Origin: Eledone cirrhosa
Lineage: Eukaryota
Assembly: GCA_964016885.1 (NCBI GenBank)
Contig: OZ024740.1
Coordinates: 425,196,001-425,260,000, forward strand
Direction: 5' to 3'
DNA: 64,000 bases
Under the pieces are notes generated by a model. That model searched no databases, had not been told where the DNA came from, and saw only the letters and a list, made by a program, of their open reading frames with translations. Each line of letters begins with the position of its first letter. Positions within the stretch are counted from its first letter, which is position 1. This document shows positions 19,772-63,386 of this stretch, piece after piece. The translations under genes and the position numbers were made by a program.

Positions 19772-21207
19772 CTCTTTTACTCTTTTACTCTTTTACCTGT
19801 TTCAGCCATCCGGCTGAGGCCATGCTGGGGCACCGCCCTTGCTGCTACACACTTTATCTCCAGCCTGTATAGGTTGGCCACTGGTGTAGGAGGGAGTTTG
19901 TTGCTGCTGCCCTTAGGTTTCCCTCGTGTCTTGCTGTGGGCTCATCCGGGATCCTGGATAACAAGGTGTCGAGATGTTTCTTAAAGACATCCACCTCCAC
20001 GTCATGCAAGTCTCGCAGATGCCTCGGCAGCCTGTTGAAGAGTTGAGGGCCCTTGAATCCCAGGCTATTGCAATACCTGCTCCTTATTCTAGATGTGGAA
20101 GACGGGACCTTTGGCACCACACAGTGACGTCCTGTTCGACGGTTGGTCCAGCTCCCAATGCCAAAGTTTGGTGCTAGTCCCTCCAGGATTTTCCACATGT
20201 AGATCACTGCGTATCTCTCCCGTCTTCGCTCCAAGGAGTAGAGGTTCAGTTCCTTCAGCCTCTCCCAGTAGCTTGTCTCCCTCATCTTGGCAATCCTCTT
20301 GGTGTAGCTTCGCTGGATTGCCTCAAGCTCTGTGGTTAGTTTGACACTATGGGGTGACCACAGCTGGGAGCAGTAGTCCAGGCGGCTTAGGACAAAAGTC
20401 CTCCACAGTGTCAACATGGTGTCTCGATCTCTTGTAAGGAAAGTCCTCAAGATCCAGCCAGCGAATCGTCTACATGCTGTCGCCACCTTCATGATGTGTG
20501 AAGAAAAAGATGCATCATCGCTCATGTCTATGCCCAGGTCTCGTATCGATTTTGACACGGGGATATCGGTCCCTCCTGGTCCTGTGTAGCTGTGTTCCGC
20601 TATATTTGTGTTTGTGTTTGCAGGTTTGTATTGTAGGGCTTGGAATTTGCCAGCATTAAACTGCATGTTGTTTTCTTCCGCCCATCTGTATATGGCATCC
20701 AGATCCTGCTGTAAGAGGGCAGTGTCAGCCGGGTTTTTGATTGCCTGTGCTACCTTAGTGTCATCAGCATAGCTAGTGAGGGATGTTGTTGCATGCACCA
20801 CAGAGGGCATGTCCGAGAGAGCCACCAAAAACAGTAGTGGTCCCAGGACTGTCCCCTGAGTCACCCCACTTGTTATCGGCGTTTCCCTCGAGAGAGCCCC
20901 ATTTGCTGCGACTGCCTGGCTTCTGTCCCTCAGGAAGCCATGCAGCCACTCACCTACTTTTCCAGTTATGCCGAGTCAGTGTAGTTTGTGACATATCATT
21001 CCGTGGTCGACCTTGTCAAAGGCCTTCGCAAAGTCAAGATATATCACGTCTACATGTGAGCTGTCTAGTAGCTGTCTCAGTACCCAGTCGTAGTGATGTA
21101 GCAGCTGTGTAAGGCAGCTTCTTCCTGGGCGGAAGCCATGTTGCGTGCTAGTCAGGCGGTCATTTTCTTCGAGGAAAGTGATTAGTTTCTTTCTGACGAC
21201 TCGCTCC
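19771..21207 (-). mobile_element. CR1/L2-superclade LINE: RT domain to 3' end with (AAAAGAGT)n tail; 5' part lost in the assembly gap
   Basis: QHGFRPGRSC, YLDFAKAFDKVDH, QGTVLGPLLF, YADDTK, LDYCSQLWSP, LYSLERRRER motifs; tail CTCTTTTA x3 on plus. Confidence 0.92.
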
Positions 21208-21407
21208 NNNNNNNNNNNNNNNNNNNNNNNNNNNNNNNNNNNNNNNNNNNNNNNNNNNNNNNNNNNNNNNNNNNNNNNNNNNNNNNNNNNNNNNNNNNNN
21301 NNNNNNNNNNNNNNNNNNNNNNNNNNNNNNNNNNNNNNNNNNNNNNNNNNNNNNNNNNNNNNNNNNNNNNNNNNNNNNNNNNNNNNNNNNNNNNNNNNNN
21401 NNNNNNN
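21208..21407. other. Assembly gap (200 N)
   Basis: Run of N. Confidence 1.
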
Positions 21408-27425
<6,018 letters not shown>

Positions 27426-27527
27426 GAATATAGACATAGAATATTCGAAAATATTCTGTATGTTTATAATAAACATTTTGAAGACCTAATCGCTATAGAA
27501 TAGAATACGTCACGTATTACAATTAGA

Positions 27528-27614
27528 TTCTCGATAAAAGCAAGGGAAGTAATCTACGCGTTTCATTCTAGTTAGAAATCATCAGGACTACATATCCAGT
27601 GCTTTTATCGAGAA
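27528..27614 (-). ncRNA. Type I hammerhead ribozyme motif (copy 1)
   Basis: Reverse complement of 28374-28460. Confidence 0.85.
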
Positions 27615-27837
27615 TGACACAGCTAGAGACTTATAGAATACTTAGCTGTGTACAGGAACTGGTTTGAAAGAGCGGTTGCCGGTCCGGCAGAAATTAGAAA
27701 TTGGAATAAATGCTCTGAAATAGCGATATATATGTGATTATAGACATAGAATATTCGAAAATATTCTGTATGTTTATAATAAACATTTTGAAGACCTAAT
27801 CGCTATAGAATAGAATACGTCACGTATTACAATTAGA

Positions 27838-27924
27838 TTCTCGATAAAAGCAAGGGAAGTAATCTACGCGTTTCATTCTAGTTAGAAATCATCAGGACTA
27901 CATATCCAGTGCTTTTATCGAGAA
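27838..27924 (-). ncRNA. Type I hammerhead ribozyme motif (copy 2)
   Basis: Identical to copy 1, offset +310. Confidence 0.85.
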
Positions 27925-28147
27925 TGACACAGCTAGAGACTTATAGAATACTTAGCTGTGTACAGGAACTGGTTTGAAAGAGCGGTTGCCGGTCCGGCAG
28001 AAATTAGAAATTGGAATAAATGCTCTGAAATAGCGATATATATGTGAATATAGACATAGAATATTCGAAAATATTCTGTATGTTTATAATAAACATTTTG
28101 AAGACCTAATCGCTATAGAATAGAATACGTCACGTATTACAATTAGA

Positions 28148-28234
28148 TTCTCGATAAAAGCAAGGGAAGTAATCTACGCGTTTCATTCTAGTTAGAAATC
28201 ATCAGGACTACATATCCAGTGCTTTTATCGAGAA
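28148..28234 (-). ncRNA. Type I hammerhead ribozyme motif (copy 3)
   Basis: Identical to copy 1, offset +620. Confidence 0.85.
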
Positions 28235-28373
28235 TATTCTATGTCTATATTCACATATATATCGCTATTTCAGAGCATTTATTCCAATTTCTAATTTCTG
28301 CCGGACCGGCAACCGCTCTTTCAAACCAGTTCCTGTACACAGCTAAGTATTCTATAAGTCTCTAGCTGTGTCA

Positions 28374-28460
28374 TTCTCGATAAAAGCACTGGATATGTAG
28401 TCCTGATGATTTCTAACTAGAATGAAACGCGTAGATTACTTCCCTTGCTTTTATCGAGAA
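28374..28460 (+). ncRNA. Type I hammerhead ribozyme motif (inverted copy)
   Basis: TTCTCGATAAAAGCA-ctggatat-GTAGTC-CTGATGA-T-TTCT(AACT)AGAA-T-GAAA-CGCG-TA-GATTAC-ttccct-TGCTTTTATCGAGAA: 6-bp proximal and 15-bp distal stem I, palindromic stem III ACGCGT, GUA site. Confidence 0.88.
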
Positions 28461-28597
28461 TCTAATTGTAATACGTGACGTATTCTATTCTATAGCGATT
28501 AGGTCTTCAAAATGTTTATTATAAACATACAGAATATTTTCGAATATTCTATGTCTATATTCACATATATATCGCTATTTCAGAGCATTTATTCCAA

Positions 28598-29420
<823 letters not shown>

Positions 29421-29628
29421 TGAGAAAAACCACAGACCCTCCATCTCAACTCACCTTTTGAAAGGCAGAAGAACTGCGAAACCGGTAAAGGAACGAAATA
29501 AATATATATATTTAAAAAAAAAATAAGACTTCAGTTGCATTTTCGATTTCATCTCTTTTTCTTTATACTTTCACTCGTGTAGGACACCTCGGTTATTTTT
29601 CATTTTGTAAAAAAAACCTCACTTTCTA
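29421..29628 (+). mobile_element. (TA)n-flanked ~208-bp element with a variant hammerhead (29454-29491); same family as 36121-36460
   Basis: CCTT-TTGAAAG-GCAG(AAGAA)CTGC-GAAA-CCGG-TA-AAGG; the 3' end CCTCACTTTCTA|(TA)n matches the copy at 36121. Confidence 0.75.
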
Positions 29629-29685
<57 letters not shown>

Positions 29686-31616: not shown

Positions 31617-34189
31617 GGTACTCAGCCAGCTATGTTATGTTAGTACCTACCTATCTATGTGGACACTGGGTACATTGCTGCCCAGCCAGCTATGTTAGGC
31701 TAGTACCTAGGTATCTATGTGGACACTGGGTACATTGCTGCCCAGCCAACTATGTTAGGCTAGTACCTAGGTATCTACGAGGACACTGGGTACATTGCTG
31801 CCCAGCCAGCTATGTTATGTTAGTACCTAGGTATCTATGTGGACACTGGGTACATTGCTGCCCAGCCAACTATGTTAGGCTAGTACCTAGGTATCTACGA
31901 GGACACTGGGTACATTGCTGCCCAGCCAGCTATGTTAGGCTAGTACCTAGGTATCTATGTGGACACTGGGTACATTGCTGCCCAGCCAACTATGTTAGGC
32001 TAGTACCTAGGTATCTACGAGGACACTGGGTACATTGCTGCCCAGCCAGCTATGTTAGGCTAGTACCTAGGTATCTATGTGGACACTGGGTACATTGCTG
32101 CCCAGCCAACTATGTTAGGCTAGTACCTAGGTATCTATGTGGACACTGGGTACATTGCTGCCCAGCCAGCTATGTTAGGCTAGTACCTAGGTATCTATGT
32201 GGACACTGGGTACATTGCTGCCCAGCCAGCTATGTTAGGCTAGTACCTAGGTATCTATGTGGACACTGGGTACATTGCTGCCCAGCCAACTATGTTAGGC
32301 TAGTACCTAGGTATCTACGAGGACACTGGGTACATTGCTGCCCAGCCAGCTATGTTAGGCTAGTACCTAGGTATCTATGTGGACACTGGGTACATTGCTG
32401 CCCAGCCAACTATGTTAGGCTAGTACCTAGGTATCTATGTGGACACTGGGTACATTGCTGCCCAGCCAACTATGTTAGGCTAGTACCTAGGTATCTATGT
32501 GGACACTGGGTACATTGCTGCCCAGCCAACTATGTTAGGCTAGTACCTAGGTATCTACGAGGACACTGGGTACATTGCTGCCCAGCCAACTATGTTAGGC
32601 TAGTACCTAGGTATCTACGAGGACACTGGGTACATTGCTGCCCAGCCAACTATGTTAGGCTAGTACCTAGGTATCTATGTGGATACTGGGTACATTGCTG
32701 CCCAGCCAACTATGTTAGGCTAGTACCTAGGTATCTATGTGGATACTGGGTACATTGCTGCCCAGCCAACTATGTTAGGCTAGTACCTAGGTATCTATGT
32801 GGACACTGGGTACATTGCTGCCCAGCCAGCTATGTTAGGCTAGTACCTAGGTATCTATGTGGACACTGGGTACATTGCTGCCCAGCCAACTATGTTAGGC
32901 TAGTACCTAGGTATCTATGTGGATACTGGGTACATTGCTGCCCAGCCAACTATGTTAGGCTAGTACCTAGGTATCTACGTGGATACTGGGTACATTGCTG
33001 CCCAGCCAACTATGTTAGGCTAGTACCTAGGTATCTATGTGGATACTGGGTACATTGCTGCCCAGCCAACTATGTTAGGCTAGTACCTAGGTATCTATGT
33101 GGATACTGGGTACATTGCTGCCCAGCCAACTATGTTAGGCTAGTACCTAGGTATCTATGTGGATACTGGGTACATTGCTGCCCAGCCAACTATGTTAGGC
33201 TAGTACCTAGGTATCTACGAGGACACTGGGTACATTGCTGCCCAGCCAACTATGTTAGGCTAGTACCTAGGTATCTACGAGGACACTGGGTACATTGCTG
33301 CCCAGCCAACTATGTTAGGCTAGTACCTAGGTATCTATGTGGATACTGGGTACATTGCTGCCCAGCCAACTATGTTAGGCTAGTACCTAGGTATCTATGT
33401 GGACACTGGGTACATTGCTGCCCAGCCAGCTATGTTAGGCTAGTACCTAGGTATCTATGTGGACACTGGGTACATTGCTGCCCAGCCAACTATGTTAGGC
33501 TAGTACCTAGGTATCTATGTGGATACTGGGTACATTGCTGCCCAGCCAACTATGTTAGGCTAGTACCTAGGTATCTATGTGGATACTGGGTACATTGCTG
33601 CCCAGCCAACTATGTTAGGCTAGTACCTAGGTATCTACGAGGACACTGGGTACATTGCTGCCCAGCCAGCTATGTTAGGCTAGTACCTAGGTATCTATGT
33701 GGACACTGGGTACATTGCTGCCCAGCCAACTATGTTAGGCTAGTACCTAGGTATCTACGAGGACACTGGGTACATTGCTGCCCAGCCAACTATGTTAGGC
33801 TAGTACCTAGGTATCTACGAGGACACTGGGTACATTGCTGCCCAGCCAACTATGTTAGGCTAGTACCTAGGTATCTACGAGGACACTGGGTACATTGCTG
33901 CCCAGCCAACTATGTTAGGCTAGTACCTAGGTATCTACGAGGACACTGGGTACATTGCTGCCCAGCCAACTATGTTAGGCTAGTACCTAGGTATCTACGA
34001 GGACACTGGGTACATTGCTGCCCAGCCAACTATGTTAGGCTAGTACCTAGGTATCTATGTGGACACTGGGTACATTGCTGCCCAGCCAACTATGTTAGGC
34101 TAGTACCTAGGTATCTACGAGGACACTGGGTACATTGCTGCCCAGCCAACTATGTTAGGCTAGTACCTAGGTATCTACGAGGACACTGG
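31617..34189. repeat. 60-bp minisatellite, about 43 near-identical units
   Basis: Unit GGGTACATTGCTGCCCAGCCA(A/G)CTATGTTAGGCTAGTACCTAGGTATCTA(T/C)G(T/A)GGA(C/T)ACT; period exactly 60. Confidence 0.97.
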
Positions 34190-34659
34190 TATCTTGCTGC
34201 CCATTGAAATTGTTATAACCAAAGTGGCCCTTGAGCATCCCCGGGGCATTCTTGAAATTGTACTGTAATAATTAGTTCATAAACAGGTTTCAGCGTTTTA
34301 CTAGAATGTTCTCACTGATGTCATCCATAGAGAGTCCATCTTCTCAATAAATATACTCCTGCCTATTTCTTCTTCCTTCGGTTCTATAAATTCGACGTAA
34401 GGAAACATGGATTCTTCGGCTCACACTTTGTCTTATCTTGGATTTCTTCCCTTACTTATTTTCGGGCCCTTGCTTTCTTCCATGTTCCTTTTACTTTCCC
34501 TATAACCCTGTTCCACAATATATAAAAGATACACAAAAGAAGAGGTATGGTCTAAAACTTGATAGATCTGTTGGTTTGAGGTATATAATCACAACCGAAA
34601 GATGTTTACGGTGTAAGAATCTTCTGAATGTGTACAACCATAGTCCCATCTACTTTTAG

Positions 34660-35260: not shown

Positions 35261-36120
35261 AACATTCTAGACATCAACAAAGATAATTCCATTATTTAGA
35301 TTGTTTTCAACTACATTGAGATGAATCCTGGACAAGTACAATAAACACACACATTGCCCCCCCCCCAACACACACACAGAGTCAGACAGACATGAGTTTT
35401 GTTTTCTAAATATGACGAGAGGAATAAAACTCCAATCAACCGAGGTTAATTTAACAATTTCCAGACCGACATATGATTCCTCCAGGGAAACTCATGTAAT
35501 GGAGGTCTAGCAAGGTAAAGTCTTGCTATAGTTTCCACTTATCGAAGTCTTTGTTATATAGTGCAAGGTAAACAATAAAAAAACAAAAAAAAACACTGAT
35601 AACTATTACCAAAATATACGTCGGACAACTTTCTTTGGGGTATAGAGTTACAGCCCATTACATTCTGAGTTCAAATCTCACCAAGATTACCCCAAAAATT
35701 GTTGGCACTCTGCCTAAGTTAGAGACCAGTGTTAGGTTGACGCTTGTGTAGGAAGGTAAAAAGAAGTGTCCTCAACGTATTGGACGTTTGTCCTTCTTCA
35801 GAAAAAGATGTGAGTGAAATTAGGAGACATAAGAGGCTGGAAGAGAAAATAATGAGAAAAAAGAAGGGGCGGGACTTGTAGGAAGGAGTGGAGTATAGGG
35901 TATATGTAGTCCTGGAGAAAAATGTCTATGCAGTAAGGGTAGCATAGTAACCGGGTCTACCAGTGGTGCTGATATGTATGGTGTATTGTGTGTGTCTCTC
36001 TGTACCACGTTCATGTAAGTCTGGGTGAATATTTGCAGCGTCAAGTGGGTGGTTGTTTGTGTTTCTACTGTATGATACATATATATATATATATATATAT
36101 GATACATATATATATATATT

Positions 36121-36460
36121 AGAAAGTGAGGTTTTGTTTTTTTACAAAATGAAAAATAACCGAGGTGTCCTACACGAGTGAAAGTATAAAGAAAAAAAGA
36201 TGAAATCGAAAATGCAACTGGAGTCTTATTTAAAAAAAATATATATATATTTATTTGGTTCCTTTACCGGTTTCGCAGTTCTTCGGCTTTTTAAAAGTAG
36301 AGTTGAGATGGAGGGTCTGTGGATTTTCTCAGACCCTCCATCTCAACTCTACTTTTAAAAAGCAGAAGAACTGCGAAACCGGTAAAGGAACCAAATAAAT
36401 ATATATATTTAAAAAAAAAATAAGACTCCAGTTGCATTTTCGATCTCATCTTTTTTTCTC
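36121..36460. mobile_element. Palindromic (full minus arm plus partial plus arm) copy of the 29421 family
   Basis: 36121-36330 is the reverse complement of 29421-29628; 36330-36460 repeats it forward; (TA)n on both sides. Confidence 0.85.
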
Positions 36461-61277: not shown

Positions 61278-61280
<3 letters not shown>

Positions 61281-62840
61281 CAGTGAGAGCAATGTTGAAT
61301 TCCGTGGGATTGATACCAGTGAGCTGGAACTCCTACTTAAACTTACCTATAGTAATAATGATCTAGATACATATGGCCTTAGCTACCTGTGCCCTACAAG
61401 ACCAGCAAAAGGCAGACCACGTACCATTACCTCAATGGCCAAGAAAACCCACACAGATAGATGGAACGGGTGGACTAGAGCCCTACGGACCCCCGAAAAT
61501 CACGATGAACTAAAGAAAATGATTGCACATGCGGTGGGGGCCAGCATAAAATTAACCCTTAAGGAACATATGTTCAAATTTAATGGAAAAACATATGTCC
61601 AAGATGAGGGAGCAGCCATTGGTGTTAGCATTGCAGGCGACATAGCTAACCTATTCATTGTATGGTGGGACAGTAGACTTAAACTTAAACTTAAAGAACA
61701 ATTAGAAGACCCCTTAACCCTGATAATGTACTCCCGCTACGTTGATGATATAAACATCGTAGTTAAAACACCCCCACTAGAGAACAGTCAGGAACTAGAG
61801 AAAAACACAATGGAAAGCATCCAGCAAATAGCTAACTCCATCCACCAGAGTATTAGAGTTACTATAGACTACCCAAGCAAACATCCCAACCATCGATTAC
61901 CTGTACTAGACACAGAGCTGTGGTTAGATACCATCAATAACAAAAAACAAATCCTCCATTCCCATTATGCCAAACCCATGACTTCCAAATATCTGATCCA
62001 CCGAAACTCAGCTCTTTCGGACCATACCAAAATCAACATACTGATTGCGGATTTGGTACGGGTGATGAGAAACGTGTCCCGAATGTGCAACCCCGAAGAA
62101 CTAGAGAGACACATACAACACTTCATCCACCGTATGCAGTTCTCTGGTTACAATCAGAGAGATAAAATCAGAGTATATAGAGGAGCCAGAACCAAATGGG
62201 AAAAAATGGTAAATAACGACACAAATGGGACCTGCCCCTTGTATAGGAGCAAATTTTGGAATAGAATAGAAAGAACTAGGAATAAAGCTAATAGAATAAA
62301 CTCATGGTATGATAGCAATAAATACCAGAGTGTAATGTTCATCGATACAACCCCTAGAGGTGAATTAGCTTACAAATTTAGAAGGGCCCTAGATAAATAT
62401 AAACTCAATATTAAGATAGTAGAAAGACCAGGTACCTCCATAAAAACACTTATTAGCAATACATATCCTTTTCAAAGACCTCCCTGTATAGATAAGAAAT
62501 GTATAATCTGTAAATTAAGCCCCCATATTAACTGTAAAACTAGAAATGTAGTATATAGCATAAGATGTACTGAAGGACAATGTAGAGATACAAATATAGT
62601 GTACATAGGTGAGACAGCTCGTAGTATAGGGGAACGGATAAATGAACACTGGCGAGACCTTCAAGATAGTAAAGAATCATCTGTACTCTACCAACATGCT
62701 AAAGTGAACATAAGAGTAAATTAGAGAACATAGAAATAAAAATAGAATCCACACACAGAAAAGACGCAATATTTAGAAAAATCACAAAGGCAATAAACAT
62801 AAATGAACTCCAACCAAAATTAAATAGAAAACATGAGTAG
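61278..62840 (+). pseudogene. Penelope-like RT + Cys-rich linker + C-terminal GIY-YIG endonuclease (5'-truncated; one frameshift at about 62707)
   Basis: FKFNGKTYVQDEGAAIG, YSRYVDDI, LPVLD, HYAKP, CIDKKCIIC..CKTRNVVYSIRC...YIGETARSIGERINEH; the shifted frame continues ..ITKAININELQPKLNRKHE*. Confidence 0.9.
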
Positions 62841-63068
62841 AACAGCAACATCACAACTTATAATTAAGGACAAAATGAAAACACACACGCACATAGAAAA
62901 AACAACCAACCAGTAACATGTAAATAAACAAATAAATAAACGAATATAAACACACACAGACACCCGGATGTAACACATGCGCAAACTAAGCACACAACAC
63001 ACACTCAAAGACGAGATGGCGTAGGACAGAACAAAGGAGAGGCACAAAAACAAAGAAAATAATCCCCA

Positions 63069-63111
63069 GTCACTGAAGAGGTCACATAATGTGTGACGAA
63101 AGAACTTTGAC
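63069..63111 (+). ncRNA. Variant minimal hammerhead in the Penelope 3' region
   Basis: GTCA-CTGAAGA-G-GTCACA(TAATG)TGTGAC-GAAA-GAAC-TT-TGAC. Confidence 0.6.
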
Positions 63112-63333
63112 AATATATAAACAATCATCTGGTTGTGGAACCAACCAACCAGCCAGAAATTTATAAATTCCTAAGTTTATTAATTTATAATTTATAAATT
63201 TATTATAATAAATTGAAGTGAAACAACTGGTGCGTGTGTTTCTTATTGGCAGCATGACCCTCCCAAAGTATAACAATATCGGTTTCAACACACGTTTTCA
63301 GATAAAGAATCTTGCTAAACAAATTCAGAAACG

Positions 63334-63386
<53 letters not shown>

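Follow-up and report, generated by a model that had tools for sequence, protein, structure and literature searches.

A 310-nt hammerhead-bearing unit in the genome of Eledone cirrhosa is inserted mainly as back-to-back arrays, in which one arm ends at a fixed site A of the unit and the other arm at a fixed site B, in 104 of the 104 loci where both ends are visible. This is the outcome of the comparison of start and end registers across genomic copies that the initial annotation of the region had proposed. We propose that the copies probably arise when a Penelope-like reverse transcriptase-endonuclease primes both DNA ends on one RNA, which would usually be a circle. In some thousands of nearly unmutated and internally barcoded insertions, the family combines a strict rule of one end per site with a template shared by the two arms and synthesis over many laps, and these insertions record the Penelope integration reaction unusually clearly. 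They bear on how, and by which enzyme, retrozyme circles become genomic arrays, and on how Penelope-like elements (PLEs) make their inverted repeats and one-sided tail; they would show how this poorly understood class of transposons inserts.

The locus in the window: arms, ribozyme and fold

The window is the whole stretch of 64,000 nucleotides that was analysed (contig OZ024740.1, positions 425,196,001 to 425,260,000). Its locus consists of 2.6 minus-strand units placed head-to-head with 1.2 plus-strand units and embedded in (AT)n, into which both arms pass directly; three of its four ribozymes are on the minus strand, the fourth on the plus strand. We number the unit from the base following the predicted cleavage site, which is position 1. 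The features of the locus, in window coordinates, are:

27425..28235, minus strand: left arm, 2.62 units, RNA-sense 3' end outward, stopping at unit position 130 (site A), with a private difference at 27738
28232..28598, plus strand: right arm, 1.18 units, RNA-sense 3' end outward, stopping at unit position 165 (site B)
28232..28235, no strand: head-to-head inversion junction, a 4-nt microhomology GAAT at unit positions 250 and 109
28373..28461, plus strand: type I hammerhead with helix I extension, core at 28403-28433, predicted GUA cleavage after 28433
28175..28205, minus strand: hammerhead core, the left-arm copy closest to the junction
27865..27895, minus strand: hammerhead core, middle copy of the left arm
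27555..27585, minus strand: hammerhead core, outer copy of the left arm
28564..28598, plus strand: the 35-nt stretch from A to B, present only at the right-arm end, equivalent to the Penelope 'tail' (as described in PMC11167929 and in passages of PMC8557442)
21408..27425, no strand: (AT)n microsatellite target, left portion
28597..29421, no strand: (AT)n microsatellite target, right portion

The initial annotation described near-identical tandem copies with an exact 310-bp period and a single difference between units. In the window sequence the period is exact across 27425-28235, and 27738 is the sole internal difference there. The plain tandem that was assumed is in fact a pair of opposite arms overlapping by the 4-nt GAAT, and the features absent from that first reading, two fixed outer end sites (at which we place the priming) and an inverted two-arm build, are the most informative ones of the locus.

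Each unit has one hammerhead, as had been described, and from its sequence we classify it as a canonical type I ribozyme with a predicted cleavage site. In order, it presents CUGAUGA, a 4-pair helix II closed by U.U and not by G-C, GAAA, the palindromic helix III read as ACGCGU, and the GUA after 28433. The bipartite helix I also stands, with 6 bp followed by an extension of 15-16 bp; in the computed ensemble the pair probabilities are 0.85-1.0 for the 6-bp helix and 0.97-1.0 for 14 of the 16 extension pairs. With its long helix I and weak helix III, the ribozyme is not of the minimal PLE type that the earlier description implied. In the computed monomer ensemble, helices II and III hardly form (0.1 and 0.0). 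Axolotl ribozymes described in passages of PMC7229834, one with a one-pair helix III and a palindromic tetraloop and one with a U.U-closed helix II, resemble the unit's ribozyme in these features and are weak as monomers, with 6% and 22% cleavage.

The circular minimum free energy (MFE) fold of the unit has -67.8 kcal/mol (z = -4.4), and none of 200 dinucleotide shuffles folds as low. Most of the hairpins noted by eye are present in it, namely the UUCG, AATACG, ACACAGCTA, TGCCG and ATAGCGAT helices; the ATGTTTA hairpin falls outside the MFE fold and has a probability of about 0.4. The opposite strand of the unit folds equally well (z = -4.5), so folding by itself does not identify the strand. 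The unit has a GC content of 34% and, in agreement with the earlier description, no protein-coding ORF, the longest stop-free frame being 59 codons. With Rfam, no hammerhead reaches the gathering score in the window, nor E<=10 in the locus; a MIR8562 match in that search was rejected, being the inverted junction folded back on itself.

Two other features of the window are recorded here. At 31623-34203 there are 43 copies of a 60-bp unit matching at 97%, with one frame open throughout for 863 codons that would read as a repeated Cys/His-rich 20-mer. At 19854-21413 (minus strand), fragments of a LINE-type reverse transcriptase lie beside an assembly gap. A retrotransposon protein in the window has its closest named relatives in Octopus species, which points to a probable octopod host.

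End sites, templates and junctions across the family

Searching the 3.0-Gb genome with a 33-place pattern gives 18,060 intact ribozyme cores, which amount to about 5.6 Mb; the reversed-pattern control gives 0. Judging by the laps per locus, these would belong to roughly 2,000-3,000 insertions. The forward strand alone has 779 site-B ends that pass into (AT)n; matches on the reverse strand are multiply counted. We read 118 loci, obtained by four sampling routes: 20 from the unit search, among the matches listed (150 of 258); 52 that are the first B-anchored loci on contig C1; 40 A-anchored loci outside the B-anchored set; and 6 ribozyme-bearing loci from the first 31 Mb of C1 (17 such loci in all) that had escaped end-anchoring. 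All but the unit-search set come from the single contig C1.

Two arms are present at 105 of the 118 loci. The A+B pairing is seen in 17/17 two-arm loci from the unit search (among the matches listed), in 49/49 partners of B-anchored ends, in 36/36 visible partners of A-anchored ends and in 2/2 further two-arm loci from the ribozyme-anchored check; no A+A or B+B pair appears among the 118 loci read. The first 112 loci include 103 that are two-armed and head-to-head, of which the 102 with both ends visible are all A+B; the remainder are seven single-armed loci, one cut by an assembly gap, and one that extends beyond the 10 kb read and has at least 29 laps. The six extra loci that are ribozyme-anchored comprise two A+B pairs, one further locus with a probable short partner arm and three single arms. 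Since end-anchoring missed six of the 17 loci, the two-arm share given above is overstated, and the ribozyme-anchored count over the first 31 Mb of C1, with two arms at 12-13 of 17 loci and a single arm at 3 of 17, is less biased.

Site A ranges over unit positions 115-140, mostly 130 or 139, and site B over 150-175, mostly 165-172. Site B thus lies 26-42 nt downstream of A, an offset of about 35 nt like that of the Penelope tail. The outer flanks are (AT)n-like in 201 of 205 cases. The (AT)n target is able to pair with ATATATAT at unit positions 132-139, at site A; site B, in a loop rich in pyrimidines, shares 1-2 nt of homology with the target. At most loci any target-site duplication is masked by the (AT)n itself; at L337 a stretch of about 30 nt is repeated on either flank. 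There is no LTR structure at any of the loci read.

The two arms of a locus come from the same template. Both arms carry a matching set of all-lap variants at 67 of the 71 anchored loci in which each arm has at least one lap (25 haplotypes; permutation mean 9.6, maximum 21 in 50,000). Two of the four non-matching loci are probably insertion calls at alignment edges, and the other two, L094 and L209, are real mosaics. Of the 33 all-lap variants, 16 are private to one locus, a pattern that requires amplification of a single unit into every lap of both arms. Variants confined to one lap number 158 in 340,791 bases (0.046%), and for 50 of the 54 open to comparison the corresponding lap of the other arm lacks the variant.

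The variants reflect selection on the RNA fold. A helix is broken by 1 of the 30 all-lap substitutions but by 41 of the 127 one-lap substitutions (p = 5e-4), and no all-lap substitution strikes the invariant ribozyme core; the all-lap substitutions concentrate in loop II, N7 and position 10.1, where a pair is regained in one case. Changes of the A>G type account for 9 of the 30 all-lap and 10 of the 127 one-lap substitutions, an excess that could come from G.U tolerance or from RNA editing, either being sufficient.

A minority of loci, up to 11 of 112, are mosaic. At L209 both arms run through two laps of a common haplotype before changing to a second one; at L074 and L198 a variant is found in the first lap only, in both arms; and at L033 a one-lap variant is common to both arms with an offset of one lap. 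Patterns of this kind call for a multimeric template, a template switch made jointly by the two arms, or conversion of one arm by the other at a later time. In a few long arms, linked variants return at irregular laps (6 of 29 laps at L101; laps 6 and 13 at L086), which suggests some later rearrangement at the DNA level. Periodic variants of the kind that mark n-mer circles are limited to one ambiguous case, L086.

In contrast to the fixed outer ends, the inner ends fall all over the unit and show no preference for the cleavage site: 5 of 204 lie 5 nt or less from it, and 6.6 would be expected. The 102 junctions are overlapping (57), blunt (12) or have filler (33), and of the 69 ungapped junctions, 40 overlap by at least 2 nt, where chance would give 18.5%. 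Across the 66 loci tested, each inner junction is unique to its locus. At the 103 two-arm loci the arms are joined directly, with a gap of at most 54 nt, except for one 272-nt insert; in that case (L061) the 272 nt are unrelated GC-rich sequence captured between the arms. Arms reach at least 29 laps, and multi-lap arms are the rule at dispersed loci. The longer arm may be on the A or the B side, hence neither arm is a copy of the other, and arm lengths are uncorrelated (rho 0.20, p 0.17, n = 48), which indicates that the two reverse transcriptions do not run in lockstep.

Related units are also present in the genome. An older sister family with a unit of 321 nt is about 70% identical to the 310-nt unit and has 1,200 candidate genome places (for instance L053:900-1410 and L102-L131). 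It keeps the long helix I and other helices through compensatory changes, its hammerhead core has U3-A8 instead of C3-G8, its palindromic helix III is longer, and its head-to-head loci use the two end sites of the 310-nt unit. A 312-nt sub-variant (L335 and L336) has more than 12 all-lap differences, some of them at site B, and retains both end sites.

We also find the unit in other sequencing runs. Run X1, of unknown kind, has the unit at a very high summed depth, for which the roughly 18,000 genomic copies could account. None of the runs listed with the unit is an RNA run, which counts neither for nor against transcription. Three runs labelled as three other organisms (X2-X4) each contain a 99% identical unit as one closed 340-nt contig; a tandem array or a circle would look alike in such contigs, and close relatives, host DNA in a mixed sample and transfer are indistinguishable as sources.

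Proposed mechanism, alternatives and known systems

We envisage the following series of steps. Arrays would be transcribed, the RNA would self-cleave at GUA, perhaps as dimers, and the products would be ligated to 310-nt circles. The enzyme, probably a dimer, would bind near unit positions 130-200 and nick both strands of the (AT)n target. One DNA end would then be primed at site A, where ATATATAT (132-139) offers a pairing partner for (AT)n. The other would be primed at site B, which lies 26-42 nt further downstream and has no more than 1-2 nt of homology; the ends themselves are observed at these sites, and we suggest that they are where synthesis starts. Each reverse transcription would lap the template for one to 29 or more rounds; the laps and the sameness of the template are seen directly, and the template topology is presumed circular. 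Finally, the two cDNAs would join through the microhomology or short filler seen at the junctions and copy each other. The retrozyme with rolling reverse transcription of a circle that the initial annotation suggested gains indirect support, from all-lap variants common to both arms, many laps, inner ends that lie off the cleavage site and a spared fold; the patterns at L209, L074 and L198 mean that some loci do not come from a monomer circle.

The same twin priming could operate on a template that is usually a long linear concatemer, either uncut read-through RNA or the product of RNA-to-RNA rolling, with circles as an occasional bottleneck. The ordered haplotype switch at L209, identical in both arms, and the single-lap variants that both arms have in common at L074, L198 and L033 point in this direction, as do the weak helices II and III, the insertion without need for ribozyme cleavage and with uncut RNA as main substrate in PMC11167929, and the eight of nine Xenopus retrozymes that stay uncleaved in vitro (10.64898/2026.07.22.740005). 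We nevertheless consider a concatemer unlikely as the usual template. It does not sit well with the 50 of 54 one-lap variants unshared between arms, with the 16 locus-private variants fixed across all laps or with all-lap variants that spare the catalytic core; no inherited source junction was found at the loci compared, and the copying of linear arrays alone would shorten the arrays every generation.

Much less probable still is a satellite-like history, in which short Penelope-type inserts were later expanded or homogenised in DNA by unequal exchange, gene conversion or rolling of DNA circles. Local amplification of pLTRs by unequal crossover has been proposed (10.64898/2026.07.22.740005), and the irregular linked variants in the long arms of L101 and L086 fit such growth, but a one-lap divergence of just 0.046% leaves little time for it, private variants occupy every lap of both inverted arms, the selection on variants tracks the RNA fold of one strand, and multi-lap arms are usual at dispersed loci. 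The idea that the arrays are remnants of the pLTRs of a single autonomous Penelope element, or else assembly artefacts of the fold-back kind, is hardly credible and largely refuted. The ribozyme core does resemble that of a Hydra-type pLTR (below), and inverted arrays in microsatellites are described in passages of PMC8557442 as hard to assemble. Yet no array that we read is joined to an RT-GIY-YIG ORF, attachment of all copies to such an ORF being what the initial annotation said would make the unit simply a pLTR; the PLE ORFs found in the loci by tblastn are separate neighbours in the same microsatellites, and the 103 two-arm loci have direct arm joins. The artefact that the annotation also raised is implausible given fixed A and B ends, locus haplotypes and unique junctions, which are unlike random chimeras, and given an independent sequencing run that contains the unit with ends passing into (AT)n.

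Judged by its features (a type I hammerhead in each unit, a unit of 310 bp within the range of 150-450 bp, GC below 50% and no ORF), the family would be a new and very young non-LTR retrozyme, in a class of elements that is itself known. The animal non-LTR retrozymes described in passages of PMC7229834 and 10.64898/2026.07.22.740005 likewise have non-coding tandem units of about 300 nt with low GC and a type I hammerhead. In those passages they are head-to-tail tandems only, whereas our loci are mostly inverted and two-armed, with fixed A and B ends and arms from the same template; and circles are demonstrated there, whereas those of the 310-nt unit are predicted. Rolling reverse transcription of retrozyme circles by PLEs has been proposed (PMC7229834, PMC7761336, 10.64898/2026.07.22.740005), in the portions of these sources considered here without insertion-level evidence.

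With EN+ PLEs, as reported in PMC11167929 and in portions of PMC8557442 and PMC3846280, the family has in common head-to-head inverted copies, a one-ended tail of 30-40 nt and (TA)n targets; our loci present an inverted 5'-truncated copy adjacent at the 5' end, a tail at one end and a (TA)n or AT-rich target. In the in vitro work of PMC11167929, a purified PLE protein with a predicted dimeric structure nicks AT-rich DNA on both strands and extends both, and it begins reverse transcription inside the RNA, at two neighbouring sites that delimit the tail, a further likeness to our loci; the bulk assay gives no strand difference in start site, and later steps are unvalidated there. According to PMC8557442, the PLE tail is confined to one end, and how the inverted repeats and the tail originate is undefined. 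Differently from these PLEs, the 310-nt unit has no ORF and both of its arms are multi-lap, and the strict pairing of one A with one B and the shared template are measured here. Head-to-head junctions were explained in 2013 by self-priming on antisense RNA (PMC3846280, in the part relevant here), to which the unit's junctions, being scattered and mostly non-palindromic, are a poor fit. In the literature searched, subscription papers and supplements being outside its reach, we found no published account of PLE twin priming or of inverted two-arm retrozyme arrays.

The nearest analogue is L1 twin priming, in which a single RNA is the template for priming from both target ends and an inversion results when the cDNAs are joined through microhomology. 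In L1 the two sites are the poly(A) end and a variable internal site of a linear RNA, the parts copied are largely non-overlapping, and such inserts are a minority. For the 310-nt unit, by contrast, both sites are fixed and internal, the arms cover the template repeatedly, and this is the main route.

Candidate enzymes and other Penelope-like elements

The autonomous PLEs of the genome display the two-end pattern too. Among them, a young and intact Hydra-clade element is the most likely driver of the arrays, although we give this identification only about an even chance. Its ORF is open in 5/5 translated copies, four of 713 aa that are 98.5-99.7% identical and one of 714 aa at 97%; intact copies are found at L331-L334 and L323. 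The motifs DKT, the CxCX5C linker, and CxxC and CxH in EN agree with the Hydra clade as described in passages of PMC8557442, as do the canonical hammerhead and the (TA)n insertions, with RWR at the RWK position. Its pLTR has the hammerhead directly upstream of the ORF, and two 3' ends. The pLTR ribozyme core and that of the unit agree at 26 of 28 positions, among them the U.U closure (score 45 versus a shuffle maximum of 35 in 500). The A+B pattern of this element comes from three short two-arm loci only, 4 of 14 intact copies having been read at 6 kb. Its end sites are about 65-75 nt apart versus about 35 in the unit, and beyond the ribozyme core the similarity is one 8-nt AT-rich word near site A, the rest being unaligned. 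As its tail has about double the length of the unit's and most of its pLTR does not align, the element is a candidate driver or ribozyme donor rather than an established parent. In the window itself, a Hydra-type pLTR fragment with a U.U-closed hammerhead lies at 1462-1518 (minus strand).

Tentatively, and with somewhat more doubt than belief, we put forward a fuller picture in which a Hydra-clade dimer loads one ribozyme-made circle and writes both ends of the break, one subunit per fixed site, rolling for kilobases. Penelope tails and inverted repeats in general might originate in this way, and the circles might form an RNA population selected for its fold, possibly with an A-to-I signature, with every insertion preserving the state of a single circle. 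Because the genome supplies both the 310-nt substrate and an intact candidate enzyme, the mechanism is directly testable in vitro, and the young intact Hydra-clade PLE is a ready candidate for the biochemistry of its clade.

Two Neptune-type families also target (AT)n. The clade labels Hydra and Neptune are putative assignments from motifs, the latter because the CX2-5CxxC linker described in passages of PMC8557442 is present. The older Neptune-type family has a 5'-truncated copy in the window at 61279-63338 (plus strand), with RT and GIY-YIG, in (AT)n, and with a minimal hammerhead from 63073; against Pfam, the window PLE ORF gives a weak RVT_1 match alone. The 3' ends of that family are 59 nt apart, in head-to-head pairs. 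The young Neptune-type family has many copies that are 99-100% identical. No similarity to the unit was found in the pLTR or 3'-UTR of the older family (30 loci), in the young family (20 loci) or in six other 3' regions.

A second small element of the window was considered as a linear control and dropped, several of its copies reaching further 5'. Finally, the 3' fragment of another PLE-type family is present at 29421-29632 and 36116-36459, head-to-head with ends about 63 nt apart; some copies of this family continue further in the 5' direction, and several fold back at one short palindrome.
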